Shown here piece by piece: positions 28,801 to 55,800 of a stretch of DNA of 64,000 bases (position 1 is the first letter of the stretch; each line of letters starts with the position of its first letter). The DNA is taken from contig NMRA01000035.1 of the NCBI GenBank assembly GCA_002633005.1, forward strand, positions 62,001 to 126,000. The letters run 5' to 3'. The notes beneath the pieces are model-generated. The model searched no databases, was not told the DNA's origin, and saw only the letters and a program-made list of their open reading frames with translations. The stretch is from Phoronis australis. Its lineage: Eukaryota > Animalia > Phoronida. Position numbers and translations under genes: made by a program.

Positions 28801-31800
28801 TAGGCCAAAACTGACCAGACAAAATTTCGTTTCACCCATCACGTCGGACAATGACACGTGATGACTCAGGACTCTGATAGTAATTCCTGTCAGCACTCAG
28901 TCACCATGATGCAGAACTTCCCGCAATTTTCTTTGATTAAATTTGACAAGTACTGTATCTCCTGGTCACATGACCTACCTGCCGACTGCTCAATCTGCAT
29001 TTTCGCCATCGCCTTCTCCACATCGTCCGTGACCTCGTGCACGTTGTACATACACTTGTTCACCACGTCTTCGCGACCTATTTTTCTTAACGCTCTCTCC
29101 AGCTCATTTCCTGTGCAAAGATGAGAGAGACTAAAACATGAGCTACGCAAACCTAGCCATGAACCTTTGAACCTACTTGCTGATAAACCTCGCCGCTTCA
29201 TCACTCACACCCTTTTTTATGCTCTCTTCAGTCGTTTCCAGAAATAAATTAAAAAACAAAGTTTGCAGATATTTAACATCCTGATGATGAGAAATAAAAT
29301 GCAGTTCTTCAGCATCCAATCTTTGGGTTCAGTTTACAAGATGTAATGAGGAAGCCTACTTTTTGTTAACATAGAATCGTTTCACTGCAAATAAAAACCA
29401 ACGGGTTGAACGACAAATGTAAAAGTGGCTCTTATCAATAATTTACGCAAACCTGTAGCTTGACTTCCATTTGTCTCCGCCCAGGTGTGCAGCATGTACA
29501 GACACTGGTCGCTGGCCGTCTCAAACTCCATGCGACATTTTTCTATTTGTGAACTGGGCAACTGCAGCTCTTCGGCCAACTGAACCCAGTCATCCTGTAC
29601 GGCGTCAGAGATCTGCGTCAGTCGAAGTTCGGCACCAAGGTAACTTTCTGTTGTTGTTGTAGCTAAAATTAAACAGAAACTGAAATTAGAATGGACTAAG
29701 TTTCCACTAGAGTTTAGTCAATTTACTGGCCGTGATAGATCTCATGAATTAAATATTTACTAAAATTAAAAGGAACCATCACAATACTCACTTCGTATTA
29801 TTGTGTACTTTTCTCGTAATTTTTTAATAGTTTTCTCATCCAAATCAGGAGCAGGTTCCGGCTGAAAAGAACAGAAAATATGACTGAAGATAAAGGATAA
29901 CTTAAGATTCCGTAACATACCTATGTAATCCTGCAAATGTACAGAGTGTAAAACTTCAAGGAATTTTACAAAAATTCACTCAGATAACCTGAAAATATGA
30001 ACTTTGTTTAAATATTTTAATCAGTAAAGCTACAACTTGGATCACCACTCGTGCAGACTGCAGCTTTATTCAAATGATCCTTGACCTTTGGCAGCTGACC
30101 TTAATGCAAAATCCCTTCACAACACTATCACTGACCCCTGTGTATTCTGGAAGAGTCACATTGAGGTTACAGATGGGATGCTGAGGTGCCTCGCCCCTGG
30201 CTACTTTTGGCTCCTTCATGAATGCTATGCGACCCACAGGGTCTTGGTCGTCGTCACGGATACGAACAATAAAAGGCAGGCGGTTCTCTCGGAAGGCATG
30301 GAAGTTGATGTAGAGCTGTTCGCCAGATTTTGTGACTGGCACCAGATTGCCAGCCATCTCTATAAACTGTGGTTTGCCTTCTTGGACCTGTAATGAAAAA
30401 AAATGAGTTGTTTAAAAATGAGACCAAAGCAATTCACATTTCCTCATTTTTACTGGAAGTTATCAACTCTGGCAACACTCAGCTGAAGTTAACATAAAAC
30501 AAGTGTTCGCTTATTGGACAATTTCAAGTTTGCTACCTTATAATGCAATGAATGTATTGAACATGTTATTAAAATATTATATATCAATAAAAAGTTGTTC
30601 CCTCATCATCTGGTAGGAACATTAATCCACAATGGTCTCTCGTGAAAATAAATTAAACTACATAGGGCAAAAATTTTTCCACTTTGGGAGTAATTTGCGA
30701 CACTGAAATTCAAGCCGAAATTGAATTTTCTCGATTCTGAACATCAAGACATGGGCAATTTTGCAGTAAACCGATATTTCTCAAATATTGAGAACCTCAT
30801 TTTTATCAACAGCCTGAAAATGGACTTGGCAGACGGCTAACTTCTAGAACTTGGTACAAGCTCCGACATTAAGCGAAACAATTTTCACTGTTCCAATTTA
30901 CAGAATGTGTAATGTACTGTGTCTCAGCCAGTATCAGCATTCCAGCCGACAATCCCATACCTCAACGTCTCGACTCCTGGCCACCTCAACAAAGTGTTCC
31001 TGAGTCTCTAGGGTTTTGTCCATTTTGTCATCGGTCATGCAAAACGCACGGAGACGGGCCTCCTTCTCTTCGTGTCGTTTGGCAAAGACCACAAACTTGG
31101 ACATAAATGGTATGTTCATTGTTTCTCGGTAGAGCTCTGTGGCCATTCTGGATGCCTCTCCTATATTCTGGCAGTCCATCAGCCAAAACCTGCAATTTAC
31201 ATGCAACAATTACAATACATACCCGCAACACTTTTAAACTAAACCTAGACCTTTGTCGTAAGATATTTATTTTTCATTTTAACTCTCAATAACCAAATGT
31301 AATTTTGCATCAGTCTTGGAATGCCACGATTCTGTGGTTTCTTTCAACAAATCAATATACAGACTTTGGAGCATATAACACTGACACACATTCAAGTTCC
31401 AATCTGATTATCTCTATACAGTGTAGGCATTGACCTCATTAAATAAAAAATAAACATGATGATAATGATGTCTATTGAAATCCTACATTTTAGTTTTTAT
31501 CGACACTGTGAAGCCGATATAAAGACAGTCCTAGAAACAGAAGACACAAAACACTCTTATTGCTTTGCATTATTTTTGGCAAATCCTTTTCCTACAGCTT
31601 GACCTGTTCGCAGTATGGCAGAAAATCTACAATTTCGTGATGAACTGTTGATGTGGGCACTTTTTCCTCATGGAAACTGTCCTCATTGTTACGATTTCCT
31701 TACCGCCACATACAACAAATTCTTTGGAAAAAATACGGTACATATCTTTCGAAACATTCAAACCACAACTTAACGGATACGACAAAACTGCAAGCCGCAG

Positions 31801-34800
31801 TTTACCTGGCTGAGACCGTGGTGGTGAAGGACACACAGTCATTGACAAATGTCAGCGGGGTCGTTCCAGTAATGTCCTCCCACTGGGCTGCCTGTGTACC
31901 CCCTGCAACCAACAATCAAGATATAAGTCTGCACAGCACACAAACAGATCTACATGACTTACACATCTGTACAATTTCACAAAGCACTTTTACAGTCAAT
32001 GACACACAATATCATCTGCTGAAACATGCACAGAGCGCAGAATCACACAACGGGTCTGTTTTGTGAAAAGTGACTTACCATAAACTCGCGGGTTAACGCC
32101 CTGGGAGCTTAAATTGGGAAACTCTGACATAGGGGGTGGGCGATTACTCAAGCAGTGTGCGCTTAAACCGAAAATTGACATAAAGTCGGGGATGAGCGAT
32201 TACCTGGGCATAGGCGTTAACCCGCGAGTTTACGGTAGATCAAAAATTAGATCTTGCACTCCTCACGACTATTTCTTGAGCAAAAGTCCGAAGTTTCCAA
32301 GAATATATGCATAACTGATAGCTGCTGAGATAATATCTGTAAATTATTTCTATAATGCCATATCACTTACAAGAGGTTACCCTTTGTCAACAATTGTGAT
32401 GTGGGCGTAGAAGACCAAGTTTTTGGCTCACAGTACGAATTCTTCAGTATGTGACATAATGATAATGGTAGACAGGTGAAATTTCATTTTGTCAAATTTC
32501 TCAACAAAATAACTTTTCAGGATAATATACTTTGCTTTTAGCATGGTTTGCATGGCATAGCCATTACCAAACATCATTTGATAAAATTTTGAGCATTTGC
32601 AACAATGTAGCAAGCCTCTGAAAATTTGTCAATTTTCCAACTACTTTTGTCCCAAATTGAAGAAATTTTACCGTAATTCTCACTTTCATGATACAGCCCC
32701 AGACGCAAGGGTGTGTGATTCATATAGGTTCATAAGGTAACCAAATTTCAAAGCTGTAGCCAGAGAAAAATGCATTGCTTGGTGTTTCAATTAAATAAAA
32801 GATACAGGATAAAGGGAAAGTCCCAGTGACTAAATGAAGGGTTGGTGAGACAGCTTTGAATCTCACAAGCATTTCAACCACCTTTTGTATATCAGTGCCT
32901 CATTAAAAGCAAGAAGACACCAGCGCGCTGATTACATCATTACTGAAGAGAAATCTTTAAAGCAAAGATTGAAACTAAATATCTGACATGTCCAGGGTCA
33001 TAGAAAAGGAAAACGCAGTTCTGTGGCTAAACAGGTGGAAGTGACATGCACGTAGGATTAACCAAGTGACAAGTTGTGAATAGTGAATATTGGTGTATTA
33101 AGCTTTATCCACAAGGCTAACTTATTTTATTGCGAAAATTTACGAAAATTGGTATAAATCGGGATGGTTTAAAAAGTATAACAAACTGGAACAGCTAACG
33201 TAACATTTCACTTATAAATTATTATATTCTGGTGTGCCTTTTAGGTCGTTACTGTTAACCAGGTTGTTTCCAGATTCAACAATAAAGACAGATGCTAAAC
33301 AACAATAGTGACATCTTGTGGTATAATGAAATCTGATGACCAAATCAAAATTACCACGAAGCAACAGAATGGAGGTAACAGAACGTCGAATTACAAACTA
33401 CACCAATTTTCGCACTGTGTCTTCAATTCTGAGGCTATGAAACTGAATCAAAGGGAAGCCATCAATTAGCAGCTAAACAACGAGACAACATGCATGACGG
33501 ACATTTAGAACTAGACCTGCTACTGAGTTGCGACTTCCTATTTGTGTGCATTAAAGATAAAGGCAGACATCATGAATATAACAATGCAAAGAAAATGCAA
33601 ACGATTCAATAACAAATTCTACGGTGAACAATAAAATGTGGCCCATTTGTGGCTGAATGCCAGCCTATTTCCCAGTTAAGAGATTTCGGAGTTCAAGGAA
33701 CAAAAAGTTATTAAATTTCAAATGCAAAAGGTTGAGTGGAAAATTGTGCAAAGGCGTTGTACACCTTCATCCAAATGGAAAAAAACTTAGTAAAAAAACG
33801 TAACGGAATATTTAAGATGTCTCCCAGTAACAACAAATGTTTAGCATTTCCATTAATGGCAGTGATCAACCAATCAAAAAACTGATCAAAATGAATCAAT
33901 GATAGCAACCATAATGCACCTGGACATACTAGTAGCTGACATCTGCAAACCGTGCTTAAACGTTATCAGTAAACTACACAGTCAATCAAGTGTCTAATCA
34001 GTGGCACTACAGTTCAACTGCAAATAAAATGTCGCAAAAGCAACACAAATTAGCAACCCTGCCGTACTTATTTAGAACATTGCGGTCCACCAGATACTGC
34101 GAAATACCAAGCGGATATTTCTACTACAGATTTCAGAACACCAGCCCTATACAAACTACCGCGTGTACATATGGGACCAGTTATGACGGCTTTTCAAAAA
34201 TCTCTTACTCCCAATGTGACTTACCAGTTATGCTGCAGAGTAAGCGAAGAGTGGGCGCATCTCCGCCATATTGGTTGATCATGCCCTTCTGAGCAGCTTT
34301 TGGAACGGGGATTGTCAGGGTGATCGGCTTGTGGAACTTACGTCGCCTCGGCTCGACAGTAACAATGGGACTCACAGCAACGCGGTTACCAAACATCTTG
34401 GTTACTATGTCTGTGTTCACAGGTTGGGCCTGCAAAAGAAGCACCCGTCACTCAGTAAATGTAGCTCTGAATACTAGAATACCATAGGGAATGTCTCTGC
34501 GGCTCAACTTTACACTCAATATGTTTCACATGTTGAAAACAGTTAGCACAATTAAAAAACATCAATTCCAGAACCATAATGAACATTTCAATTAAACAGA
34601 TTATGCATTCTGGGGATGCCAGTGGTGACATGGTTAGCTATCGACCATGGCGTATATTCGACGTGTGACCTGGCTATGTAATACTAAGAAACAAACCGTC
34701 AATACCTGCAGTCCAACTTTGATGTTCTTGGTGAGAGCACCCTCTGGGAACACGGCCTGGACCTGCGGAACGACTGTGGAGCTTATGACGCCACCATCGG

Positions 34801-37800
34801 CACCGATCTGATTGGTCTCCTGGCGAACGCGGCTGACGATGGCGAAGTACTGTGGGAACTCTGTGGTCAGTATTCGGGTGATACGCTTCTGTGCCAACTC
34901 TTCAGACGTCTCCAGTTCTTGAGAAGCAATACGCAAGTTTGCCATTAATTGAAAGGTGTAAACCAGGAAAGTGGCATTTAAAAACAGAGTCAAACTGAAA
35001 AATTACAATTAAGGCAATAAAAACAAATGATGTTGACAAAGACTGATTATAAACCTACATTACATCGGGACTAATAATGATTACAATGTCACCACTGTGG
35101 CGGTTTGAACAGCAGTAAGAAAATTTATTTGTTAAACAAATCATGCTTAGAAATGGAACAATTTTTTTCCGAGGAAATCATCTAATATGACTAATGACAG
35201 TTTTTCCTGTTTGAATTATTGCATTGTAGTGAGTGATTATGAATCCTGGCTTTAATTGGCATTGTAACAAACCACTTGACCCACAGAACTTAACCTGATA
35301 ATTGACTGCTGGCATACAAAGGCCCGTATGTTTATTGGTTACACATGACCCCAAACTGAGAAAACTAATCATGTTTACAAAAGAAATCTGCAAATCACAC
35401 CATGAAAGATAGCAGAAATCGACTCAACATTTTGTTCTTAGAGGGGATCAGTAGTCTGAATAGTGGCTGCGAATTTTGCAGCTGACGATTGTAAATCATA
35501 GTGGTTTCGAATTTTGCGGCTGACAGTTGTAAATCATTGGTGTCGTTCACACATAACCTTTTTGAAAATGACATACAATGTCAATGAAAGCAGTTTTATC
35601 ACACAGCTGTCTCAGTTAGGACTGTGTAACAAAACACACCTTAACAAAGGGTTTGTGGGTCTGGTTGGGAAGACAATTATTTTATTACCCCCACATGGAT
35701 TCTGAATAGGTGGGGCTAGGAATGAAAGTGAAATTCATGGCAAATATGAACACTTTATCAACTTCATTTGTTTAACACTCAAGATGTCTTCCGAACTACT
35801 TTAAATAAACTTCCTTCAGCCTAGAGAATGTCCATGTGTAAAAAGGTCACATACTGACTTTCACGACAAAAGGACACAAAAAACAATATGACCTTCGGTT
35901 AACACTTGACACTCCTACTGAGCACAAATGTTACAATGAGTTTTTTGCCGTCTTTTAATGTAACAGAACAAAATACCACATGACTGGTTTGTGTTTTCGA
36001 AGATGTCGTTTTCTAGAAAACAAGACTAATGAGTTTTGATTAGTAACCAAACTTGATAATGTTGTTGTCACAAAAGTGGGAACCTTAAGACCAAGTACCA
36101 AAAGTCCTAAAAAACAACGCAGATTTATTTTTAAGTGTCACACTCCTGCCCTCCTACTGTCCTTAACACAATATATCACTATTGTGACTTCAAGTCTCAT
36201 AACTAAAGGAAGAAAACAAATTTAAGTTTTAAAGTTAATCAGTTTTCATGAAAAATTATTAATGCCACAGACCTGAACTTAAGATCACATGTTAAACATA
36301 AACATAACTTTTCTCTGTGCATGACCAAGCAGCAATGAATGCTAACAAGCAGACAGAGGTACAGTACAATACTGCCAGCATTACCAGGCACTCCATCGTA
36401 TACACCACATATACTGATGAATCAGTGATCGATTCTTAACATTTTAACTTTTTGCGGAAGATAGTTGATGCTACATTGAATCAAGCCTGAAGTTGACATT
36501 CATCAGTAGAGTTCTGCAACAAACCTTAGTCCCGAGACATCAGACATCACTGCTGTCAGGGGCCATAATGAAGAAAACTAAATTTGGATTTACAAACTGC
36601 CTTGGTTATGCAACTCTTGGCATGCTCACCTTCAAAGCTGTCCTTCAGAATCTCCTGCACAATGTCATCTGAGGCTTCCAAGCTGTGTTCTGACCACTTC
36701 TCACCATTGTTGCTACGCAGGATGACGATCTCGCGTTCACGTCCACGCAGTGAAGCAAAGTGGGGAATTTCCAGAATGACGGGTCTAAAAGGCAAATATT
36801 CCTGGATATGAGTAGATTAGTCTTCAGCTTTACAATGCATAAAAATGCAAAGGCGGTGAAATTAAATGACACAGGCGACTAGATGCTATGCTGCATACAG
36901 TGAAGTTTCGTCAGCACAGGACGTGTTATGGCTGAAAAGTGGAACTTTGATACGTCAAACTTCAATAACAAAATATTGAAACAGCAAGCACCCAACATTT
37001 GGTAAAAGTTTCAAGCATTTAGTATCAAACGTTCGAAATGTGTAAAAATTTCACAACAATCTACTGAATACTGTGATTTCACAGCACTCACCCCAAGAAT
37101 TGGGCATTGGCAGGGCCTAGCTCAATGATTCGACTGGCCAGGGCCTCTCCCTCCATAAGGGGAGGTGGTACTAGAACCTTTTCCTTCTTGACAAGGCGAC
37201 ACGTGACGCGGGTTGGCTGCGATGCCATGCCCGGTGGTACGATCATACGCACGCCCGAGTGGCGACAACCACGCATAGCTCCTCCGCGGGCGTCCACCAT
37301 GAAACTGACGAGGAAACTACAAGAACGTGGAAACAATAAATGCCTGGTGAAACATTAAATCAAATGCCCTAGTCTGATATTGTATGAATGGACATCTCAA
37401 AGGTGCAATAAAACCCATGTTGCCGTCAAAGAAACAAACTTTAGATCACTTACTGTTATAAAACAGGTCTTACTACGTCCTTACTCTGGTGAGAAATGGT
37501 TTCTAAACTTGGAAAGAACTGACAGTTTGTTACTGCTTTGAACCATGCTTGTGGACATCAAATAATCACTATTACAAGCCAACTTGTGGACTCGAGCAAT
37601 GACAAACTGTAAGCTACCTCTAACTTACGCGAAGAACGACAGGATACCAATTTCATAACTTTAAGTGCTCTAAATCAAAACTTAGTTTTTGACGGATGGC
37701 AGATTTACCGCAAGTTTAAGCAAAATTATAGCAAATGGTTAGTAGTGGTGACTAGTGTACTCTATTGACAGAGGAAACAACTACATTTCTATGGCAGAAA

Positions 37801-40800
37801 TATGCCCATACTGACCATGGAAGGTACTTTGCATCAAGTCAAATTTTGTCCTAATGCCATAAGATGGCCAGTCTGTCAACAGGGATTGGGTCATAAATAA
37901 CAACAGGTTAACAAATGTCTCATTCGGCACAGCATAAAACCAGTGCAAATATTAAAAAGGTGATTTTCAGTGGCCAGTTATGTTTTCCTGGTTTCAGCTT
38001 GACATGTCCAAATTACTATGCACCATTTCTCTTTAGTGATAAGTCTATACTTCCTGTATAGCACATGAAACGCATAGCAAGCATGGATTATTCTCAACAG
38101 TACAGCATGCCATAAAAATCTTAAATGAACATTAAAATGATATAGCACGGTATTTCAGGAAATAATAACAACCTCGGACCATTAACTATGGTCTGTAACT
38201 TGCCTGCGGACAGGGAACGCTTCCATGACTCCTAACTGTGTCTATTCTAATAGCAAGCTTCAATGTTAAAAACTACATATTATCACCGCAATCTATTCAT
38301 GGAAGACACAACAACAGAGATAATGTCAGCTTTAAAAATGTTGCTCATCATAAAATGTCAACAGTCACAAATACACGACACAAGAAGCTGTGACAATAAC
38401 TTGACTGCAAAATCATAACAACACAGAAACTGATGCCTGAAAGAGTGGTATAAAAACCATATTTGAGACTCAAGAGTTTTAAGGTTGGTATCTGCTGATC
38501 TATTCAGCATACGAGCTAACGAAAAAAAGGAATAATTCTATTTGCCATGGTTAAATTTCTCAGCAAAACAATATCACGATATTAAAGGGTAATTAGGAAC
38601 CATAAAACAACTTACATAAAACTATGGCTATTTGTACCAAGGTAATGCCAGTCTTTGAAAAATAAAAATGTCAGTTTCAGGTAATGCTTTGAGAACACAA
38701 TTGACGAAGTACTGCACAGTTTGAAATAAGACTGTAACTCAAACCATTGAGTGATGAGACAGAATAGGCACATTTTAGATATCAGCATAAGTATACAAAA
38801 CAATAAAACACCGAAGACAGACAGTCCAAGAAGATGGTGCTGGAAGGAATTTCTCAACATTTTTCAACATGTCTCATTGAATCGCACAATTCATTTTATC
38901 ACTCAAGGCACCAAAGGCAGCAAATTTCGAGGCGACACCACAAACAAAAAAAATTTGAAACATTGCACAAAAAGATTAACCAAGGATGAAAGCCACAGGC
39001 AAAGGTATCTGAATGTGGGTGATGCTTTGCACAATGCTATCTGTAACTTTCCGAAATGAACTGACTGAACACAAATAAAGACTAAGGCCAGAATATACAA
39101 GTCTAGACAACACAAATGGAAACTGAACAAAAGTTGTCTGACGACAAAATATATAACACATCTGAGGGGATACAAACGCGTGAATTTCCATTGGGAATTC
39201 ATGAATTAGGCAAGCAGGATTGCTTCAGTCCGCAATATACTGTTAATGCAAGATGGTCGCTGACTAGTTGACCACAGTAATTCATTTTTTCTTGTTTAGC
39301 ACACAGTATGGCAGACACATGAAATTTTATTTCGTCGAATTCCTCAACACATGTAGATATAAAATAACAGTCACATATTTACAACCCATTGAAAAATTTA
39401 ATTTTTTGGCAATCTCTTTAGAAGGAAATAAGCGAAGAAAATTGCCAGATTAATGTTATTTTGTCAGAGGAGATAGTTTACTTGTAATGTACAGGATCTG
39501 TAACTTAATAGAACACAGAAACAGGGAGACCAAACTTAGAAATGGTGCAAGAGATGAACTGAGTGGTTGACATATATCATGCATGTTCAGGGCCCTGGTG
39601 GCCATGCGGTTACCTTTTCCACTTCAGTTTGCTGGACAAGACAGAGGGAAGAAAAATCATGTATAGAATTATCCACAACGGACTAATTTGTCGCCACGCA
39701 TGAAAAACACCATTGCTTCAACAGCGTTTCAAACTGAAGTCTACGCAACTTAATAGTTTAACATGATGATATGGATAAAGAGCTTCCTCAAAAATCTTTA
39801 TTGAAATAACCAAAATGCTAGGCTGATGAACTCTCGTTTCACAAGAAAATGGAGGAATATTTGGCTTTGTGCACTTTGCTAAATTTCCAAATAATCACAA
39901 AAAACATTGGGTATTAAAGTTTTCATACTTGCCATAGTCGAATGTCACCAGTTTCGTTTTGGTTGAAACTATACAAACATGTAGTAGGCTACTTTCCTTG
40001 GTAAGGCATAATATAAACTAGCTACAAAATCTAACACAACAACAAAATAAAGAGGAATGTCTAAATCCTAAAATTCTAATTCTAAAACATTCATCCAAGG
40101 GATTATGTTATTCAAGACAATCTACCACGAAATGAACATTTAGTAGTTTTATTTGCAACTTTTTGTTAAACTTTTTTGGTTCGGTTCAGTTCCAGTTTTC
40201 ACCCTCGATTCTCATTCTTATATCACAGGTATAAATTAAAGTTGTTTCTTTGCTAATCACTATTAAAACATTACGTTAAAGTTTCACCAAAATAGTCTCC
40301 GTATCTGTTAAATACTCATCTACGGAAACTTTTGACTCCTTAAGAGTCATTCATTTGTTTGAGGTGGGATTGAATGGGAAGCTATTGAACCTCAGATCCA
40401 CAGTCTTTAAAGCAAATCAATCATTAACAGATCAAGGAAAAGTTTCCAATCGCTGGCGGATGCAGCAAAGGGGACAATTATCACAGTTTAGAAAGAGCCT
40501 AACGGTCGCAACAGCCCTAAAATGCCAATTTGTCAGCGTTACATTTTGGTCATGCCTGGACCCACTGCAAAGTCTTAAATTCGTCTACATCAAAAATATG
40601 CTACACGTAATGCCCATCCCCATACATTAATTTCTAAACAAACAAGCTGTTAACTTGGAAAGATATGAATTCACAAGTAGTAAAATTAATCTAAATACAA
40701 TAAGCTAATTTACAGAACACACGGCAGTCGTGATGATTAACCGAAACCATGCGAGCTATCATGTTTTCGAAAAAAGTCCAAAATTTACCCATGGTTGTAG

Positions 40801-43800
40801 ATTTAACAGGTATTTCTATTCAACGCCCAACTTCCTTAATGCCGACTACCACATAGGAGATTTTGATTAGTATGCACCGTCATACCAAACAGCTATACAA
40901 TTAGCTTGATGAAAAGGGCAAATTTCCAATTAAACTTAATGATGGTCTGTGAGTAATTGGTAGTTCAGTTCACATTTTCCTCTTCATAGAACAGGTGCTT
41001 CTAAGAAAATCTAGCAAAACTGGTTTTCGGACAGTGGTGACAAGTCTTGCTCTGGGTCAACCCTTACCCGCTGTAAACAGGTGTGCGGTCCACCACCACA
41101 TTGTCAGGGTCAAAAGTACTGTTGAAACTTTGACCGATGTACGACCCTCCACCATAGGGGCTTGTGAGCGACTGACCATAGGGGGCAGAGCCTGGGGAGA
41201 ACTCCATGCCAGCAAAGACTGAACGTTGGACCTGGGCTTCCACCTGGTCCTCCTATAAAACGACAGTACAAGATGAGCACCTCAAACACTGAATGCCACG
41301 TGACTCAGTCAAATTATGCAAGATGCAGGAAGGTAACTCCAAATTACACAACATCTAACGATAAAACAATACTGTCAAATGTGCTTGAATGCGATGAAAC
41401 AACAACAGGATATTAAGAAAACATAATGTACATTTCAAGATTACTTTTCCAGCTTGTTTTACTCATAACAACATGTATATGACATTTCAGTTAACATCAC
41501 AGGAATGATAAGAGGAGAGAGGAAGAAAATCATAAAGTTAAAGCAGTCTGGATGCATCTTAGAACAAAATATTTATAACAGGGAATGACTGGTTGAACTG
41601 CGACAGAACAGGAAATTGTAAGAAAAAGGCGTTAACATAACAAGTCCTACAAGTCCAAGAACAAAATCATATCTGAGGGAATAAAGTAGGAAGATTTACA
41701 AGCAAGTCAAAGCTGAGAACGGAAATTCTTATATTCAAACAAACACACAATCACGCACACAAGCAAGCATATTAAGGTAGCGGTATACTACAATCTACAG
41801 TGCAAACATGCCACAAACTCCAAGCTAATGGGTCACACCGTCGCCAGTTGCTGTCAGTGCAGAGTTAGCGTGCAAGTGTTAGACTGCACAGCAGACGCAT
41901 CACAGGCTGTTAGTACCGGCATCAGCAGAGAACTGGAGACCACAGAGATAGTAGACCATCTCCAAAATTAATACATGTAGTGTGACCTACTTGATGAATG
42001 GGTTGACCATCAGGTCCGTATCTGACCAGTGCAGACCTTGGTACAGCTGGCGGCCGCAATGACACTGCTGGGCCACCATTCATGGTTGCTCCAGTACCGC
42101 CAATGGTCATTTGCGCAGGGGATTCACCGTAGCGGCGCACCGTAGATGTGTCAATGGACTGAGCAGAATGGACATAGACAAGTTTTCCATCTGGGTTGTG
42201 ATGCACCATGATCTTGGCCTGCTCATAAATTGTAGGAAGCAGTTCTTTTAAAGTCACCTGACCTGGAATGTTGCCTCTACGCTGAACTGACGATGGATCT
42301 ACAGGCTGATTGACACGCATGTAGATGCGTTGGCCCTCGGGGCCAGGCTGCACCACAACTTTAGCATCACCACACCTGGGCGGTAGGAGTTCTTCCAGCG
42401 GAGTCTGAGTAGGGAACTCACTTTCTGTGTAAACAGATAGTGGGTCGAAAGCCTGGCGAGTTTTGGCATAAGCCAGGTGACCATTTGGAAGTCTTTCTAC
42501 AACAAGGCTGGAATCGTCTGAAGATGTTGGTATTTCACTTAAGGTCATGAAACTAGGTACGTCTCCCTCTCGATAGAGAACAGAAGTGTCAGTGGACTTA
42601 GCAGGATGTATGTAGACAAGTTTACCATCAGGTCCCTTGTGAACCAAAACCTTTGCCTCGCCATAGACTGTTGGCAACAACTCCTCTAAGGTCATCGCCG
42701 GTGGAACTTCACCTTCCTTGATAACTGAAGATGGCTCAAGACCTTCGTTGGTTTGGATATATATACGTTTACCATCTGGATTGTGCTGAACAACAACTTT
42801 GGCAAGAGCAAAATCAGCAGGTAGAAGTTCACCAATTGGCATATTGATTGGCGCATCTTGTTCTTCGAACACTACCAGTGGATTGAATTGCTGAGATGTT
42901 TTGGCAAAGACGAGTTCACCATTAGGGTCACGGTAGACGGCAACATTGGCATCATCAAAGATAGTCGAAGGGGTGACATCCAGAGTCATGAAGCAAGGAA
43001 CCTCACCTTCTTGAACAACAGTGGAAGAGTCAACTGAGTGAGCAGGATGGATATAGACAAGATTACCTTCAGGATCACGGTGTATCAACATTTTGGCGTC
43101 ACCATAAGCAATCGGCAACAGTTCGCCCAAAGTCATTTCACTTGGAACCATGCCCTCTTGATAGACAGGCGAGGGGTCAACTGATTGGACACTCTGCACA
43201 CAAGCATGTTGACCATCGGGGTCACGTTGAATGACTATTTTGACATCGCCACTTTCTGGAGGCAAGACTTCTTCCAGAGCACTTTGGAGGGGAACTTCGT
43301 CTTCTTTGTAAACCACAGAGGGATCAAACGACTGCCCCGTTTTTGCATACGTCAGTTTACCATCAGGACGTCGGTAGACAACAAGGTTGGCATCATCAAC
43401 AACAGCTGATGGGATTTCACCTAATGTCATGAAGCCTGGAACAATGCCCTCACGATAGACCTGTAATTGATCAGCAGATGGAGATGTGTAATACATTTTG
43501 CCATCGGGTCCACGATGAACGAAAACCTTGGCATCACCATAGACAACAGGTGGGATTTCTTCTACAGTCAACTGTGTTGGTACATCACCTTGGCGATAAG
43601 AGGCCGATGGATCCATTGAACGAACGGTCTGCATGATGGGTTTTCCATCTGGTCCTGGCTGAACAACTACTGTTGGGCGTCCATACACAGTTTGAGGAAC
43701 ACTGCCTGCGTACACAGAGCCTGGAACAGTACCTTCTTTGTAGGTGGCAGAGCCATCTACTGGTTCGACCTTTGAGTAGACAAATTTACCATCTGGTCCA

Positions 43801-46800
43801 CGCTGAACGACAATTGAAGCATCACCGTACTGGACTGGAGTGAGTTCTGACAGCTGCATCTGTCCGGGGACTTCTCCCATTCTATAACTAAGGGCATTGT
43901 CAACAGAGCGAGCGGTGTGTTGGGAGTTAATAGGTTTGCCGTCAGGGCCACACTGAATACTTACTGAAGCGTCGCCGTACTGAGTTGCTGGTAAGCTGTT
44001 AACAGCAGCGGACTGCTGCTCGATGAATTCTTGTGCATCGAAATGAACTTTGTTGCCTCTGACGTCTGCAACGGGTTTGCCATCGGGACCGACCAAACGT
44101 CCAGACACGTAGCGGGCTTCTGGCGAGGTGAACACAAATGAGGATTCAGCTCTCTCTTCAGGCGACAGTTGGGACAGCTCAAAGCTCTCGGCAGTAGCAA
44201 CATTTGCTTTACGTGTCAAATCTACTGGGCGAAACTGCTCGTCATTTTGTGGACGACGACCATCGCCTCCCCAGATGTGTTTCATGGTGTCATTTCGGTT
44301 GAAGGAGCCGAGTCTATCGTCTTCCAGCTCCATTGAGTGAACGGCATCAGGGGGACGCATCAGTTGGTGGTCATCACTACTACGAAAAGAGTCACGTCCC
44401 CTGTACTTGTGTTCCTCCCCAGACGTAACCCGCTGAGAATCTCCTTTCAGTCGCATGCTATCTGTTCGCTCAGGCTGCTTAATGTAGCTCTCTTCCTGAG
44501 CGTCTATAGCAAAGAACTCATCTTGGTACTTTTTGTCAAATGGAGTTCGCGGCAGATAAGATGGCGTCTCAGGAATCATCGAACCCTGAGGATCACCGAC
44601 GCGAAAGATTTTACCGCGCATCTGCTTTTTCTCGACGCCGGGATCAGTGCCCCATAGCGCTTCCATGGTTTCATCGGGGCTGAATGACACGTGACCATGA
44701 CTCATGCTGTCTCTATCAGGCATGCCCTACGACAACAATTGATTAGTGAAACTAACACAAAAATTATAACAACATCAACACAGCAACAGCATTGCAGCAA
44801 TGTCACGCAATGAATAGTAATAAAGAGTTAATTCATGAATCAAAATGTGTCAAGGCAAAACTCCTAGCATAAACTAGCCATGCTGTATTGTATTCATCTT
44901 CCCTGTACTAGATCAGTCGACATGTTAAATACTGCATGCAATTTGACTATAAAATGACTCATTAACTAATAAAAATTAGTAGACTTTTAGTACCATGACA
45001 TTTCTGCAATGTTAATAAATGTACAAAATAATAACAACACGGATAACGAATCGAGCGGTGAGTTTCTACTGAGATATCAAATAATAACTAGGGCAATCAA
45101 ATCAAAAGTGAGAATTTATAATCAAAATGAAACAATACGGCAATGAGCGTCAGAGATCAGCATTCGATGACAATGCAAGCAACAACTTAAAGACAGGGGA
45201 TGTTACCTGCACCGTTTGGATAGAGTCGTCATTTGGATAGTGACGGAACTCCTCATTGCTACCGGAGTAGCTGAACTGCTCGATATATCCCTAAACACGT
45301 GAGAAATACGACATACGACACGGATCACTGTCAGGGTAGCCACAACAACCACATATGGAAGGTTAACAAAACGAAACTGAAATAATGCTCGTGCAATGTC
45401 CACTTTCTTGGGTTTGTTTTCGTGCAAAATGCATGTTTGCTCACAAAATTAAATAAAACTGAATCGACATTATGCACATGAATCTCTCGTTAGCAATTAA
45501 AGTACAAACCAAAATCTCCCAACATTTTTAGTTATTGACCACGAAATGAAATTAACAATACAGCTGAGGGCATGACAATTTAAGTCACAAAATACGAAAA
45601 ATGCCATTATTAGTACCATTTAAAACTTTGAAAGGCACTTGATTAAAATCAAAGTTAACATGGATTGCTTTTCAGTCAAGATACAATGAGTGTATTTGTG
45701 CTATTTGGACAAAAAACAAGGAAAGCTAAGGAACACAGGTTCAGAATTCCATGACGAGACCTGTACAATAAATTAAACTCGGAAACACGTGACTTTCTTT
45801 TTTGTACATTTCTCAGCGATTACTACGATTAAAAGCCTTCAATCTCAAAACAGTATTAGTATTTACATCTGCACATGCATTGAAACACAAGATCCCCTTG
45901 CTGCGCAAAAACCAAACTGTTTCACTGACGTCCATAACGAATATCGATTCACTAATATTTCAAGAGCTACTAAATGCACCGTGCTATCTGCGCCCTACCC
46001 AGACACCTGTGATTCCAGTGAGTCACATACCTTGGCGGGAACGATGGAGTCATCCTTCATTCCTATGAACTGGTCAGTGTTCAAGTAACTGTAGTTAGTG
46101 TCTCCCAAAATAGTGTCGTCCTCTGTAAACCGCGACACACACAAAGTGAGATGAGGGCAGCATGATCAGAAACAGTGTTATGAAGGGACCCATGGAAAAT
46201 ACCAATGTCTTACAGCTAAGAACATTGAGTTTCCAACTTGTAATCAGTCACATTCAACCTGTTTTAATGTTGCCGTCTCGTTTACTTCGAGTGATAATTA
46301 TTTACAAAGTAGGAGTACTCATTAGCCGCTGTATTGTCCCCAGATAACCTCACCCTGAAATGGCCTTGACCTTTAGTTTATACCATGGTTAAAAGGTTTT
46401 AAGTGGTGTTTGAATCAAGACCTAGTTCTTGTAAAACAAATTATGGCTACTGGTGCATAGATCAAACACATAGAACTTCAGTATCTAAAACGAGGAAAAA
46501 CAACTCACAGCAGCAAAAATTAACATACCGAAACTACGCCTTAAAAAACACAACTGGAAAATTCGAAATGATATATGAAAGACTATATGTCATAAAGCAC
46601 TGACAGTGCAGGAATCCCCCATTGATGCAGTTATACCTGAAAGCAAATATATCTTCTGGCTAAAATGTTAAACTAGCCAGATCTGTCTTCACAGTGCAAA
46701 GATTGTGCTTGAAGGAACAGTGTTACTATTGTCATGTGAACATGGAGCACTGTTCAAATCTTTGTCTTCTTCAAATTTCAAGTTTGACTTCAAAAACACT

Positions 46801-49800
46801 GAAACACTGCCAACAAAGGTAAAGTCTGTATCTTTTCCCTAGAACACCATTTTCTATCCAAAATCAAGTCTAACAGATAACCAGAGTTGCTTTTATATAC
46901 AACTCATTGGTTTGTGCACAAAAACCAATCCCGCCTTGTTTACGATGTGTCGTGACTGTTGGGCAATTTTATCACTTGCGCACCTCACTGGTGTCGTTCC
47001 TTGCTCGAGTCTCACTCTCTTGACAGAGTGTCATGCAATGATGACTACATCCGTATTATTACAGGTCCGTGGCTTTAACTAACTTTAAAGTTTGAAGACC
47101 CTGGATTTGCGATTGTGTTAGGAGGAAAACCGATGGAAAACAATAATTTATGAATGGTGTTCGTGGGTATTCGACTGGTGAACAAAAATATCCACCTATT
47201 TGACAAGTGTTTCATAAAGACATAATACAATGACCAATAACAACAGAATGACTAAAGCAGCCTCTTTATATCACACTAAAACGAGTTAATTTGCAGTAAC
47301 CTACATATGGTTGTAACTTAAAACCGAATCATCAACATAATACAACAAAAAATAAAACAATTTAAAGGAACAAACCAATTCTCTACTTACTACATTCTGA
47401 AGAAGCGGCAATAGATGCAACATCACGTGACAAAAAGTAACCAATGAGTGAACAGCAGAAGCAACATGGACAGGTGAGTAACAATTAGCGACACAACAAG
47501 AGTACGTGTACGTCAAGTGTGAGTGGTCATGTTAAGAGTCGGATGTTCTCTAACTACTAAATTAATCAGAATCTAACTGATAAACTATAGAAGCTAGGTG
47601 TTGAGAATGAAAAAAAAATAAAACAAGGGAAATTCAGTTTTAGAAGGGCAAAATTTATCCACTGTTTAGATACAATTAGCATTTTCAATTGATAGAACTA
47701 GATTGTACAAACAGTAAGAAAGTTGCATATTCAATATTGAAAAAAAACTAAAGTCGAAAAAATAAAACAAAGGAAATTCAGTTTTATAAGGGCAAAATTT
47801 ATCCACTGTTTAGATACAATTAGCATTTTCAATTGATGGAACTAGACTGTACAAACAGTAAGAAAGTTGCATATTCAATATTGAGAAAAAACTAAAGTCG
47901 GAAGCAGATGTCGAATAGAATAGTTGAGCAATATTTCAACTGACAGTTACCTTCAGTTGCCAAATCATAAACTAAGAGCTTTCTTATCACAAGTAGTTCA
48001 TTTCCAAGCCAGAAAATTAAACATTATTTGTTTGAAAAGAAGCTTTAACATTTTTATTTTTTAGCATTTTTATTTTTTAACATTTTTATTTACCCACGAT
48101 TTAGTTTTCCAGCCTAACAGCAACCGGGGTTTTATTGGTGAAGATGAAACATTTCTAGCAAGAATATTGAGACATGGTTGTTAATTACATTCACCTCACA
48201 ACAGAGGTCAGGTCAATCTTGTGAATTCACAACACCAGCTTCATAAACGGAAGAACTAAAAGAAGACGAGTAAAAGTTTTAAACGAGCGTTATTTTTGGA
48301 GAACGCTTATTATTTTCACAGACACCAAGAAACGATAAGAGAGAGAGAAAGAGAGAGAGAGAGAGACAGAAAAAGATTGACTTGGATCAACTTACTATCG
48401 CGCAGCTTTTGACCCTCAAAATAAGGAAGGTAGACATGTTGTTCAGACAGAGGTTTGCCGTACGAGTGAGGCATGAAGAAATCGTCGTCACCTGAGAAGT
48501 TATTGGAACACACGAGTCCGTGGATTAGTCAGTGGGAAAAGCCAAGTGAGATACGAGACACAAACGGTGAGCTCAACAATGTAGAACGTTGGCAACTCGG
48601 AAAGTTGCGTGCACACGTAAAATGCTAGGTAGAAACAGAAGCATTAATTCTAGTGGTGATTCTCAGTTAACAAGTCTTACAACAGAACGGTAGGTAGACC
48701 AGGCCCATCTGACTATTGTAACGGTTGTACAAGCACGTCTGCTGCCACTGTCACAAATAGCCAACGCATGCCAACAGCCCATAGCGAGATCACGTCAACG
48801 GACGAGAGTTGGACAGACAAAACATTTAGGGTATTGCACATTACCCAGAATTCCAACATGTTTACCTGGTCTCGTCGAGTCTAACAAAGTGTGTAAAATT
48901 TAATTCTTAGAACAATTTCAGTACGGCAAACAGTGAAAAAGTGTCAGAGACAGTCACAATGCACTCTAAAGTTCATGTCTAAACACTACCTCAAACCATA
49001 CCGCACATCATGCTCATAGCAATGGCTTCCCTTCAGCTATGTTCGACTTTCTACAGACTAGCTGTTAATATTCGTGCTCACTCCAGTATCGAAAGAGAGG
49101 GCCAAATCGAGAGCAATATGCACTAAGGACAGACTAACGATAAAATCCTGTGGACCAGAACACGAGACAGTCATGTCCAAAAACTCCTCGCGATGCATGC
49201 AAAACGTTCAGTTGCAGAACAATCAGCTGCAGATATATCAACGTTATTCAAAGGAGGGACACAAAGAATAGACTAACACATCACACAGCCATTTATCGCC
49301 ATTCCTAGATGACGAAATGCAATCAATGCTAACTGGAAGTCTGGACTACAAAACCATGCCAGCTAACAGAACAAGATGAATCCGGATTCAGATTGGTAAC
49401 GACCAACGTACTTCAAATCGGCCACACCTATGTAACCCGAGTTAGTTCAAACTAAATAAGAAAAACTCCACGCAGTTTGAGTTAATATTTCATGAGAAAT
49501 ACGACAAAAGCATTCTGGTGAGAGCAGGAAATCTCATTCACTTAGCGTAGATTGGAGTCTAAATGTTCAATTTTCATCACATTTGGTAGAAAAAAAAATT
49601 ATATCAGGTAAAGGCAGCACAAAGCAAACAAAGCCAATGGTAGCACACTGATTGAATGTAACCACTGCATAGCTAACACAAACGTGCAACAAGTATCACA
49701 AACAAAAATTCTCAGAAATTATTAATCTAGTCAATTTGTGGTTTGAATTTTAACGTTTTAAATTATGTATGTTCAATTTTCGGATTTGTCTTGCCATCAA

Positions 49801-52800
49801 ATCTCATATTTTTTCTCAAAAATCACATCGACTAGGAAACGAGGAAGTGCAACATGGGTAGCTAAGCACTGAAGCATTGGCTACAAAAAGAGTTGGAATC
49901 TTATGCCAGTCGAGAAATAGCCAAAGTTTGACAGTTTTCGACGATGAAAGCACGCCTAATACTAACGCTAACAGGTGTGCAGAACAAGTACCTACGTTTT
50001 AGGCTACCACAAAGTCATACAAGGCAAATAACAGGCTGTGTACCTCCTTCATCTTCCGAGTCCGTCATAAAGGTCTCCTGCATCATCTCTGGAGCCTGCA
50101 CCTTGTATTTCTCTTCCATAGTCACCCCAGTCTTGATGGACTGAACCTCAGTCACCTCCTTTAGCACTTCCTCGACAGAGATGTAGCCCAGGTGCTGGGC
50201 AAGGGACAGGGGTGTCTGGCCGTTCTACAACATAGGAACAGATTAGACATGGTGTTCCACTACACAGATGTAGGCAATGTACTGGGCAAGAGACAAGAGT
50301 GTCTGGCCGTTCTACAACATAGGAACAGATTAGACATGGTGTTCCACAACACAGATGTAGGCAAAGTACTGGGCAAGATAAAGGGGTGTCTGGCAGTACG
50401 CTGATGAATTGTGGGTGACGATATGAGAAAACAAGATGCAGTAAACTGTGGAAAACACTTAGCAATTGAAATCTGTAAATTCAAAGGGGATATGATGGTG
50501 AAATTGCTCTGTCCCAAGGATGAGAATCACAATACAACAGAGACACTCAAAAATAACAAATATCACAGATTAGTGACTCCAGGAACATTTAAATAGATTC
50601 CGTTGTGATTTAATAACTTATCCACCGCTTCGCCATATTCAATGCATGGCAATTAATTTCATTGACAAAGAGCAATGAGACAAAAAATAAAAATATTATA
50701 AGACATAAGTTGAAACATGGGTAGTGATTTGGTCGAGGTAAGATCAGACTGAAGTATTTTCACGAGACTGTAAACGTGGTATTGTCGGTTTGTTTTCAGT
50801 TAATCAGCTGTTGACCCAGATAAGTGGGAATTCCGAGACAGTGATCCAGTGCAGCGAAAGTAGTCCGTCGCACGTGACTTTATTTGACAGTAGTTATTTG
50901 TCAGTAGATCAGTTATTTCACGTCTTTCATGCACGTTTATTGCACCATGTAATATGTACATGTGTGGTATTAAAGCAATTTAATCACTTAATATTTTCAC
51001 ATAAGCACATTTAAGGGTGGTACTTACGTTGGCTGTGATGTTTGGTGAAGCATTGTACTTCAACAACAGTTTGATGACCAATACGTGACCCTGCTGGGCA
51101 GCTTGGTGTAGAGGCGTGTACCCTTGCTGTAATTAAACAAAACATATTCCAGTTCAGAACACAAGGATTCAGAATTATTCGTCTTCAGACATGAACAATT
51201 TCCATAACAATGTCTTCGTTATTTTCAAAAGTAACGAGAACCAACTTGAACTTGGCCAGTGAAAATCTCGATGATTTTATGGAAATCTTGGCTCCCCGGA
51301 ATATCTTGCCAAAAAGCCTTGGAAACAGCAGTGTTGTGTTTAAGTTTCATCTGCAATGTTACATGGCAGGAACATTCGACTATCTCTGATTAAATCTACA
51401 TAACTTCAAACAATGTCACGCAGGCATGGTAGCATAACCACCATTTATTACAAAGGGTTTTAAAGCCTAAGCTGCTGACGAAGGCCACTTTATCTGTTGA
51501 AGGTGCCTATTAAACCTGAACAATATATAAACCAAGCTCTAGCGTCAAAAAGGATTTGCTTCACTGGTATGTTTTCCAAATCAACATCATCACGTTCTTA
51601 AGCTTTGCAACATCAGGGTTATTACTACAACCTTGCTCGGATAGAGATAAGTAACAATAAAACGCCTGGCTTCCCGGACTACTGGCAGCTGAAACAAACC
51701 TGCTAAGACAGGCAAACTTCACTTTTCTGGTCTGAAGCAATAATAAACAAACAGTTGTTATCAACCACGGAAATAATTTCTAACCTGAGTAAGGAACAAG
51801 ATGAGATGGTTTTATATAGTGGCCTTATTCGAATTTTTTGACAAAAGACGCGGATTTATAATTGTCCCTTTAAAAAACATGGAGAAAGCTCACCTTAGTC
51901 TTGGCATTGACGTCAGCGTCTTGCTCCAAGAGGAAGCGGATCATGTTGATCTGACCAAAGTGACAGGCTGTGTGAAGTGGGGTGTATCCCGCCTGCAATC
52001 AACAGAGACGATGAATAGATGAAGAGAGTCACAGAGTCACTGTCGAAATGGTCATTTTCATCCAAAGTATGTGGTCAAAAGTGTTTAAGTCTACATGGTA
52101 ATTGTTTTCAACATTGACTCTCGGTACTTAAGTGCTTTCTAAGTTGACCGTTTTGTAAGACGCACCAGTCATCATCAGTTGAGACAGTCCTTCCACTTAC
52201 TCAACAGACATGAGCATGAACTCACCACAACTGTGCATATCACCACCAGCACCATATTTGAATTGTGTACACTTGTACGAAATAGCATCAACACAGACCT
52301 TGGTACAGCATCAAAGCGCCATTTGTTGGGGCTAATTATTTCTAAAATTCAATGAAGACTCGACGGAAATTTTCGGAACATGGTGGGTGCTCATACAGAA
52401 ACAAAGCGAGAGTTGGTTTCAATATTTTCATCTTCCAGAAAGCTCCATCAGTAAAGATTGGGCGTGTTCTTCATAGTCTGCATTCCAAAGACTCAAGAAA
52501 CTCGCGCGTAAGATCATTCAAGACTTCGCCAGATATTGATGTGCATTACAGACGAAACAGGTGATCACACTTAATTGTGAAACTCTTGCGTCACGTAATG
52601 CAGCCCTGATGCTAATTCAGATATTCTGAGAGTTAAACACAAAACAGTAAGTATGACGAACACTGACCTTTGTGCTTGGATCTTTGTCAGCACCATACTT
52701 GACCAGGACTTCAGCCACATTCACCTTGTCTTCTTGAGCACACAAATGCATTGGAGTCAGTCCGTTCTGCAATGAATTAAGATCGTATGATTTCCGTCTA

Positions 52801-55800
52801 GATGCCACGACAGGGTTGATGACGTATGGTGAGTAACTCTTCCATCAGAAAACAGCCAATGAATTCAGACTTATTTTGAATCTCAAAGGACTCTACATTT
52901 ATGTATAATATTTCCATTTTAAACATGTTTGACTTTGGGGGAATTCTGGGAAGGAATAAAATCTAACTATTTAGGACATGACACAGGCAGACTAGTGCAA
53001 TTGAGTTTTCTTCATTTCTTAGAAAAGAAACGAGGAACGGAGTTCTGTAACATAGCAACCAGTAGTTTGAAAAAACTGCCGGCAATTCTGGTGATCATTA
53101 TTGCTCGAAATTGACAATAAATACCGTAACGTGTAATGTACTGTGCAATGCTTTTTTCGAAATTTTAGTAATTTTCATTATGCAAAAATCTTCAGATCAA
53201 AAAATAGTTTTGTCCACCAAGTGAATTTTCAAATGTGAACTGCAGCAGTTGAACAAGAAATTTCCAACTACCTGCAAAATAACGATAATGAGTCAACACC
53301 TCAACAAGAATCTGAACAATGTCTACATAACATAACAGGTTGCAACAAACAAGTGTATGTTCTTCCCTTTAAATACTATCGGATGATCAGTTGCAATAAC
53401 CATTGATCAGTTGCAATAACCATTGATCAAAACACCTGTATGTCATCGCAAGGACATTTCAGCAGCATGAACAACGTATTTGTGAATGAAGGAGTAGAGA
53501 ATACTACCAGGGCAGATCTACTACTCACATGGGCTGGGTGTTTAGAGGCAGCTCCGTGTTCCAACAGGAGAGATACCATGTCTGTGTGTCCCTCCTGGGA
53601 TGCCAAGTGGAGTGGAGTGAAACCATTCTGCAAAAACGAGGTCATAAAATTGTTAGACGGCTACATGTCAAAATGTTTTTGATGACCCTGTTCAAAAACA
53701 GTGAATGTGAATTCTGAACTTTTAATCCTAATTCACTAGAAAATGGTTTCACTGAAAGTTACATACTGCTATAAATCTTCCCACACATCAACTAACTTTT
53801 ATTTTGACCACTTATTATACAATTAATCTCTAGTTACTTCTTAGTCAAATTTAGGGTTATTTCTAAGCTTGTAGAGAAACGACAACCCGTTGTTACTAAA
53901 GACCAGGCTCTACAAGTTGGCTTGTCATGGCGGGTCATTTCATGCACCACGCATGATCTCATACAATAATGAAGATTCATGTCTTTCCAAGAACAGACAC
54001 CGCTGTACATCCGAGTTCGGAACAAATTGAAATCAATTAGGTAGCTAAAGGTCACCTACATTCAAGTTAGTTGATTCCTCATACCAGAATACTGGTAAAG
54101 ATTTAAAAGACAACTACGTTTCTAATCCTGAAAAGTTGAACTATGTATTAGTAGAATAAATTTATCAACCTACAACCTTATTGCCAGTTTCAAGAGGACA
54201 TTACCTTTGACTCAGCGTTGGGCTTGGCATTGTATTCTAACAATGTGGTGGCAATGTCCATCTGGTTTTTCTTGGCAGCGATGTGCAGAGGTGTGTAGCC
54301 GTTCTGAAGGAGAATGTACTCCGCATCATCAAAACACAATTTTCTCTTTCAATTGTTTTTAACCCCCAACACGAAAAACAAATTGCCATATCTTTCAAAC
54401 AATTTTAAAGTTACTGTTTTTTTTTAATTCAAAGTTAAACAATACAAACAATTTTAATAAAACAAGCAGCACAACTTAAACACCTACTAAAATAGTTAAA
54501 TTAATCCTCTTACCTTTGCCGTGCAGTGGGGGGAAGCGTTGTGATCCAGCAAGAGCAGCGCCACATTCACGTTGTTGTAGTGAGCAGCCACGTGCAGAGG
54601 GGTCAATCCATTCTTACCCTGCACATCAGGGTTGGCTCCCCTCTGCAGAAGGAGACGGGCCACCTTGATGTTACCATACTTGGCTGCAATGTGCAGAGGT
54701 GTGAACCCTTTCTGTAAAGGAGAAGCATAAGATGTTATAGTAAAGGATGCGAGCGTCATTGTTCAGATATATATCGTCTTTGCTCTGAATAATCCACAAC
54801 ACACTTGTAAGAAAGCAGCAGTGGGCACATCCGCTGTGGGAGAGGATGAATATTTCGTTAAGTGCACTCAGAAACACTATTTCAGCACAAAACTGTGGCA
54901 ACTTAAGTCTTCAGTGGTTAATATGAGCAACTTCTTATGAAATCCAGAAATCATTTCTAAATTTGGTACAGACCACACCAAAGTCTATTTCATAACAGTA
55001 GTCAGAACATTTTGGTTAGTCACTTTACCCTGATGGACACGTATAGCTTATGGTGATCCTGTCCTTAAAACAAAAATCTGACAAATGTCTGGTGCTCTTT
55101 AGAGCGATTTCCCATAATATTGTCAAGACCACTCACTTTAGTGGTAAGGTTGAGAGATGCTCCTTGATCAATGAGGACCGATGCGACCTCTTCCTGCCCC
55201 TCCTTGGAGGCGATGTGTAGGGGGGTGTACATGTCCTTGGTGGTGGCGTCGGGAGAGGCGGCGTGCTGCAGCAGCAGCACCACGTTGTCTACATTACCAA
55301 GGCGGGCAGCGATATGCAGGGGAGTCTGCTGCTCCTAGAGACCAGATAGATTCAGGCATGAAAGTGAATCTTATTATCATCAAGGTCTAATGATGAACTG
55401 ATGAAACAACTGAGTGTATATTCACCAACATGACAAGTGCATTTTTGTACAACGTACCAATTGTAGAACAATTCCCAGTGACGTGTTTTATGACAGATTT
55501 TGCAACATTCACCCTACTGTATGAATTTGTCTACTTTGCATTGGATTCATTTCCACAATGCTTTAAATGCTGGACTAAACTGAAAAACTCTCCAACTTGT
55601 ACATGACAACCTACCCTAGCCTTGGCGTCAACAGTTGCTCCGTTCCTGAGCAGGATCCTCATAATGTCAGTCTGGTTGGCGCGGGCCGCCAGATGGAGTG
55701 GGGTCTCACCACGCACTGTTGGGTAGTCAGGGTTGGCATTGTGTTGCAACAGGAACAACACGATGTTCATGTGTCCCATGAAGGCAGCCACATGAAGAGG

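Follow-up and report, generated by a model that had tools for sequence, protein, structure and literature searches.

Ankyrins are modelled as short adaptors whose membrane- and spectrin-binding domains lie ~140 residues apart, and in which giant exons lengthen only the tail. In the giant ankyrins of vertebrates (AnkB, 440 kDa; AnkG, 480/270 kDa), Drosophila (Ank2-L/XL), C. elegans (UNC-44), Aplysia and Lottia, the additional length comes from one long in-frame alternative exon (PMC5135030). In the survey of these exons, long exons were defined as >3 kb and sought only downstream of UPA, and every long exon that was placed adjoins the death domain (PMC5135030). They are often made of lineage-specific repeat arrays with units of 12-76 aa (Table S4), show little homology between phyla, and a spacer role has been postulated for the Drosophila XL repeats (PMC5135030). 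Inclusion enriched in neurons and a role in axons are further features of this family (PMC5135030). The linker between the ANK repeats and ZU5 comprises residues 828-965 in AnkB (PMC5779224, PMC3663501, PMC4449188), with the autoinhibitory segments AI-c at 828-852 and AI-b at 865-896 (PMC5779224). In mouse Ank3 the linker exons measure 12-124 nt, apart from a 384-nt alternative first exon, and most alternative splicing concerns small exons located immediately 5' of ZU5A (PMC4449188). Here we describe an ankyrin gene on the minus strand of a 64,000-nucleotide stretch from the phoronid Phoronis australis (assembly GCA_002633005.1, contig NMRA01000035.1, positions 62,001 to 126,000; hereafter the window, whose own numbering is used throughout), in which a 2,736-nt exon at 44726-41991 lies within this linker. 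RNA reads confirm that it is a real, expressed, in-frame cassette exon, present in about half of the sampled transcripts. It resembles the exons of giant ankyrins in being a single long alternative exon that carries a repeat array and has little homology elsewhere. Unlike them, it is 2.7 kb long and lies neither downstream of UPA nor beside the death domain.

Results

A stop-free exon between the ANK repeats and ZU5

The exon at 44726-41991 comprises 912 codons without a stop, preceded by AG and followed by GT. Its frame stays open for 22 codons beyond the donor before a stop is reached, and the other five frames contain 25-76 stops each. The chance of an open frame of 912 codons is ~1e-19, as calculated from base composition alone. 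Guanine-cytosine content is ~48% across the exon versus 39.5% for the window, and a second copy was not found within the 64 kb. The last ANK exons lie on one side and, 4.7-7.4 kb downstream, the ZU5A exon (37316-37092) on the other; all six ankyrin chains returned from the PDB match the latter, with a best E of 7e-31. The gene model from the ANK repeats to ZU5A is in frame with or without the exon, and the ZU5-UPA core is free of stops.

Splicing of the exon to its neighbours was examined in four public runs. X1 is a contig set from study 1, whose status as RNA is a guess, and X2, X3 and X4 are stranded raw reads from study 2, of which 18-19% of each run was read. A joint within the region 40,900-46,300 was listed when at least 3 reads from 2 starts supported it. 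Five joints were obtained. The donor of the 92-nt exon at 46031 serves the giant exon, an 84-nt exon or a 185-nt exon. The joint 46031>44726, which enters the giant exon, was found in 25 reads (14, 10 and 1 in X2, X3 and X4), and 41991>41252, which leaves it, in 15 (4, 10 and 1). The skipping joint 46031>41252 was present in 5, 2 and 0 reads and in one X1 contig, which comes from the other study. The remaining two joints involve the 84-nt exon, 46031>45290 with 10, 12 and 0 reads and 45207>41252 with 1, 3 and 0 reads. Among reads that use the upstream donor, 25 of 54 include the giant exon, and among those that use the downstream acceptor 15 of 26 do so. Depth on the gene strand is unbroken over the exon (5-20 in X2, 7-20 in X3) and zero over the intron stretch 45,425-45,967, and X1 also has contigs inside the exon.

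An earlier note on this DNA, made from the letters alone, had proposed a stop-free 2,736-nt phase 0-0 exon with splice sites, placed between the ANK repeats and ZU5, that can be included or skipped in frame. The open frame, the AG/GT ends and the RNA joints agree on the exon itself, the flanking exons agree on its position, and reads for both inclusion and skipping were found, with the frame kept either way. The note had named the 84-nt exon (45290-45207) as the upstream partner and the junctions 45207 to 44726 and 41991 to 41252 as those to look for; the second is present, but the first is not among the five joints, and the partner seen is the 92-nt exon at 46122-46031.

The absence of any joint to ankyrin exons would have spoken for a nested independent gene or a transposon open reading frame. 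With the frame open for 22 codons past the donor, a terminal exon reading to that nearby stop was a further alternative. Reads join both ends of the exon to ankyrin exons, and sense-strand depth is zero at 41,805-41,985 in all three raw-read runs, so that read-through to the stop is ruled out in these samples. There is, in addition, no Pfam family at cut-off and no further copy in the window. We therefore regard these explanations as refuted for these samples and give them next to no weight.

We also considered whether the exon serves, also or mainly, as an alternative first exon, from which an ankyrin without ANK repeats would start at the exon's own Met. Met is indeed its second codon, one contig extends 39 nt into the upstream intron, faint depth is seen at 44882-45062, and exon 25 of mouse Ank3 is listed as an alternative start in the linker (PMC4449188). 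On the other hand, the depth at the 5' end of the exon (17-20 and 10-12) is approximately covered by the 14 and 10 upstream junction reads, the reads that enter the exon outnumber those that leave it, and no pile-up of read ends was listed. A first exon of this kind is thus improbable. The same agreement between 5'-end depth and the 46031>44726 reads indicates that joint inclusion of the 84-nt exon and the giant exon looks rare. More reads enter the 84-nt exon than leave it, and those that leave run to 41252, with no listed joint to the giant exon. This imbalance may reflect mutual exclusion with the giant exon or a limit of counting.

A repeat of 49 residues makes up most of the insert

The primary structure of the 912-residue insert (~100 kDa) was then examined. 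A polar leader is followed by an array of 13 full repeats, flanked by one divergent partial unit on each side. The insert contains 15 PDG-type turn motifs, with 13 of the 14 intervals between them measuring 47-50 residues. The repeats have a higher-order period of three units (~147 aa), and the array was not detected by Tandem Repeats Finder. Among the 13 units, three positions are invariant and a hydrophobic pattern is conserved, and the units are 34-63% identical to the first-listed unit. Among three blocks of three units, protein identity is 47-56% and DNA identity 58-62%; the proportion of synonymous differences (pS), at 0.68-0.76, is close to saturation, and the non-synonymous distance (dN) is 0.35-0.43. 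Judged from these block identities, the near-saturated synonymous sites and the dN values, the repeats represent an old internal duplication maintained under constraint. The earlier note had described an insert of 912 aa, which is present, but it missed that two-thirds of it is an orderly 49-residue repeat, unlike the acidic post-death-domain exon of the same gene. FoldIndex gives +0.09 for the repeats versus -0.27 for that exon; the former are hydrophobic and predicted to fold, the latter predicted to be disordered.

One block of three units was modelled with AlphaFold, using a five-row alignment built from the protein's own repeats (four sister stretches). The model, with a mean predicted local distance difference test score (pLDDT) of 64 and a predicted template modelling score of 0.53, shows every turn as part of a beta-hairpin, after which come a short strand and a helical turn. 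Ten-residue blocks across residues 61-147 reach pLDDT 66-85 with the same strand-turn-strand pattern. At moderate confidence, the prediction is that the repeats form beta-hairpin units. Searches with this model gave no match in Foldseek (best E 0.12) or in VIA-align (best Z 2.9), by which neither a new nor a known fold is shown.

The protein sequence of the insert is under purifying selection

We compared the RNA with the genome to examine constraint on the exon. Forty differences were listed for the region, with 12 lesser ones outside the listing, and 34 of the 40 fall within the exon. Of these, 28 are synonymous and 6 non-synonymous, with 24-28% expected to be synonymous, corresponding to a ratio of non-synonymous to synonymous differences per site (pN/pS) of 0.07-0.08 (p<1e-10). 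The sole listed insertion or deletion in the exon is an in-frame 3-nt deletion allele near 44252. The differences are those between sequenced individuals and the reference and, as three of the four runs come from one study, do not sample the species independently. These results show that the exon is under protein-level, purifying constraint.

Such constraint raised the possibility that the exon is translated chiefly as a multivalent binding platform, in which each of the 13 similar folded units docks a partner, so that ankyrin would gain a new interaction module and not length alone. The purifying signal is strong both within the species and between repeat blocks, the invariant positions and the hydrophobic pattern extend over all 13 units, and the units are predicted to fold. 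No partner, family or fold match suggests a ligand, however, the units have drifted to the identities given above, and folding alone would account for the constraint as well. We consider this function possible but doubtful.

The exon appears to be confined to one lineage

Homologues of the insert were sought in several collections. A word-index search among proteins of 1,597-4,560 aa and 30-500 aa gave no match, and neither did searches of metagenome contigs, the ESM Atlas and phage records. HMMER over 1.84 billion representatives returned only two weak matches (E ~2e-4), a propeller protein of the Vgb-lyase family and an archaeal protein with Ig-like repeats, both of which were rejected as short turn-motif matches. 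Pfam returned no family at its cut-off and two below it, and a repeat profile against PDB sequences reached a best E of 0.0012 over 17 positions only, which is not significant. These blank searches are weak evidence, because close relatives seem to be absent from the data; the best identity over the whole of the ZU5-UPA core is 78-79%. In a tree of 21 ZU5-UPA core sequences, the gene falls among bilaterian invertebrates in an open fork, outside the chordate clade, the flatworm clade and one large further clade.

The interval itself was examined in other animals. A scan with the ZU5A exon retained 80 of 207 related animal loci. In 25 of the 80 the sequence extends from the AI-c exon or the B-linker exon as far as ZU5A; 17 of these are genomic, representing 13 distinct loci at 95% identity, and 8 are transcript-like. 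The remaining 55 are too short or without an anchor match. In the ANK-ZU5 interval of the 25 spanning loci, the longest stop-free stretch is 173 codons and has no exon-like look. tBLASTn of the exon, which the earlier note had called for against related ankyrin loci, found no match in the 80, nor did the repeat profile. As no long open frame is present in the interval of the 13 distinct genomic loci, the giant linker exon is not a general ankyrin feature and, on present data, belongs to one lineage. Linkers of 112-201 aa were observed in 57 of 123 proteins, mostly vertebrate ANK2; all of these proteins are at most 2,000 aa, a limit under which a full-length ankyrin with a giant linker would hardly appear, and they were not counted as a test.

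The restricted distribution, together with the position of the exon in a splicing hot spot (below), is what might be expected of an expansion without function, tolerated because splicing of the linker is loose. The pN/pS of ~0.07, the inclusion near 50% and a frame that stayed open while synonymous sites between the blocks became saturated largely refute this explanation, which we rate as very improbable, marginally below the alternative first exon.

The host gene has a canonical ankyrin core and a variable linker

The features of the gene are summarized in Table 1. Of the 24 N-terminal ANK repeats of a canonical ankyrin, the window contains exons that match residues 227-786 of a bird ANK2, with the first repeats not located. 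A ZU5-ZU5-UPA cassette is followed by a death domain, as in canonical ankyrin, and the first six exons of the cassette match in size those of mouse Ank3 (225, 155, 212, 208, 97 and 229 nt; PMC4449188). From the last ANK turn to ZU5A the linker measures 150 residues without the giant exon and 1,062 residues with it, a gain of 100 kDa.

Table 1. Features of the Phoronis australis ankyrin gene, in window positions
Feature	Position	Strand	Details and evidence
ANK-repeat exons in the window	50225..58940	minus	match residues 227-786 of bird ANK2
Last ANK exon and AI-c-like segment	50044..50224	minus	alignment with vertebrate autoinhibitory AI-c
Small alternative microexon	~48869..48880	minus	12 read letters between joint sides; ends approximate
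92-nt linker exon	46031..46122	minus	aligns with vertebrate B-linker exon (first half of AI-b)
84-nt alternative exon	45207..45290	minus	22 reads in, 4 out to 41252
Alternative cassette exon	41991..44726	minus	2,736 nt, 912 aa, ~100 kDa, phase 0-0
Leader, first ~200 insert residues	44127..44726	minus	polar, predicted disordered; FoldIndex -0.16
13 full ~49-aa repeats	42087..43985	minus	PDG-type turn between two hydrophobic strands
185-nt linker exon, receives giant exon	41068..41252	minus	RNA joints
18-nt alternative microexon before ZU5A	39614..39631	minus	RNA reads
ZU5-ZU5-UPA exons (225, 155, 212, 205, 97, 229 nt and onward)	30137..37316	minus	homology
Death-domain region exons	28956..29666	minus	homology to P0005 and P0006
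Candidate post-death-domain giant exon	4004..8038	minus	4,035 nt, ~152 kDa, acidic; open frame

The limits of the autoinhibitory segments were mapped by hand from the residues named in PMC5779224 onto the alignment with bird ANK2. In this alignment the AI-c-like segment follows directly after the ANK repeats, and both it and the first half of AI-b lie upstream of the giant-exon entry. Because the first half of AI-b aligns within the 92-nt exon, this exon corresponds to the B-linker exon of PMC3663501. Between the linker and its vertebrate counterpart, the AI-c-like segment aligns, as does the B-linker exon in its first half, and both linkers have several small alternative exons and microexons (PMC5779224, PMC3663501, PMC4449188). 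The linker described here differs in gaining 2,736 nt, and with them a new repeat, from a single exon. As in mouse Ank3, the linker is a splicing hot spot, with the 84-nt exon and two microexons, the latter used in a minority of reads.

Several repeats were noted around these exons. An 87-nt unit present in 2.6 copies at 50168-50394 covers the last ANK exon's acceptor (50224), so that the start of the exon is duplicated into the upstream intron, and a few reads carry loose letters matching this unit. Short intronic stretches at ~35619-35658, ~37500-37690 and ~39295-39332, where reads bear unrelated loose ends on both sides, are likely dispersed repeats.

A second candidate giant exon in the gene tail

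An open frame of 1,379 codons at 8126-3990 on the minus strand lies downstream of the death domain and contains the candidate post-death-domain giant exon. The candidate carries a 291-nt tandem repeat, whose 97-aa unit is present 4.1 times with a DNA identity of 95%, a recent expansion. A short LPDG-type hairpin motif, found as well in the tail of the relative P0006, occurs in the candidate six times. The repeated motif common to both (tBLASTn E 1e-4 to 5e-7) supports the candidate exon as part of the ankyrin gene. Combination of the linker and post-death-domain giant exons into four size classes is conceivable as a possibility.

Elsewhere in the tail, an ankyrin segment of ~2.5-2.9 kb is present three times in 15200-23300 (minus strand), with ~89% DNA identity between the best copies and ~70% for the others. 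Two acidic exon-like frames are triplicated with it, near 22661/20173/17315 and near 20979/18082/15343, and the region may represent duplicated tail exons arranged as a cassette array. At 14675-15343 (minus strand), an acidic open frame of 223 codons, the extended member of these triplicated exons, is probably a medium-sized alternative tail exon.

Discussion

The insert described here is expressed and selected, is made of an orphan repeat and lies at an apparently undescribed position. We favour, as reasonably likely, that the exon acts as a switchable 100-kDa spacer, composed of repeats whose predicted fold is that of beta-hairpin units, between the ANK repeats on one side and the ZU5-ZU5-UPA module on the other. 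Of the functions considered, a spacer is the most likely and a binding platform its main rival, and the two can hold together.

Several points weigh against the spacer. Constraint on the residues is stronger than a passive spacer requires and fits a binding role equally. The second half of AI-b, which includes AnkB Met884/Tyr886, is not conserved, and the giant-exon entry follows the first half, so vertebrate autoinhibition would transfer only in part. Read counts are small and derive from three raw-read runs of one study, with less than a fifth of each read; the support is at the RNA level. The 12 lesser RNA-versus-genome differences stand outside the 40 that were listed, and the signal of constraint comes from this one species. 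The repeat model is only moderate, with residues 25-54, much of the first unit, below pLDDT 50 and two of five models at ~33-35, and a single-sequence model of 712 residues was uninformative (pLDDT 33).

If the spacer reading is correct, the long isoform would be made as a protein in which a flexible leader of 200 residues is followed by a chain of 13 small beta modules. The ANK groove would retain the AI-c-like segment beside it, so that part of the autoinhibition may be kept, and the ZU5-ZU5-UPA module would be intact. With the distance from ANK to ZU5 raised from 150 to 1,062 residues, bound membrane proteins could lie at a greater distance from the spectrin lattice, and fold-back of the tail, if it occurs, would be diluted. 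The exon may have arisen in one lineage through an internal duplication of old date, at a place known to be a splicing hot spot.

Concerning novelty, a giant exon in the ANK-ZU5 linker, whose prior description would have undone the claim of the earlier note, was not found described in full-text literature searches, a scope outside which most subscription journals lie. The survey of PMC5135030 would have missed the exon by size and by position, because of its >3 kb cut-off and its restriction to sequence downstream of UPA. Its Table S2, whose full sequences include ankyrins of molluscs and annelids, could affect the claim of novelty, and an isoform of this kind may already stand, unpublished, among the gene models of annotation databases. 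The earlier note had gone further and proposed an undescribed third class of giant ankyrin. The apparently undescribed position stands, but "class" is too wide for an exon for which no homologue was found and with 13 distinct loci lacking a long frame. Moreover, 2,736 nt falls short of the >3 kb by which PMC5135030 defines, as a working measure, a long exon. The insert works like the exon of a giant ankyrin, yet lies outside the position and the size by which that family is defined.

A broader and distinctly more tentative proposal is that the gene represents a second, independently evolved route to a giant ankyrin, in which a splice switch inserts folded repeats of an undescribed type, sets the distance from membrane to spectrin, combines with the post-death-domain exon and is shared by an invertebrate clade absent from the databases.

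The scope of these results is one species, and function is inferred. Within that scope, an orphan 49-residue repeat is offered for structure determination. The gene shows that a second site, too, can give rise to giant exons independently, which bears on the argument for a single origin, whose survey covered only sequence downstream of UPA (PMC5135030). In about half of the transcripts the linker is seven-fold longer, and the added length is under purifying selection. The gene thus provides a natural test of whether the spacing between the ANK repeats and ZU5 is a constraint on ankyrins.

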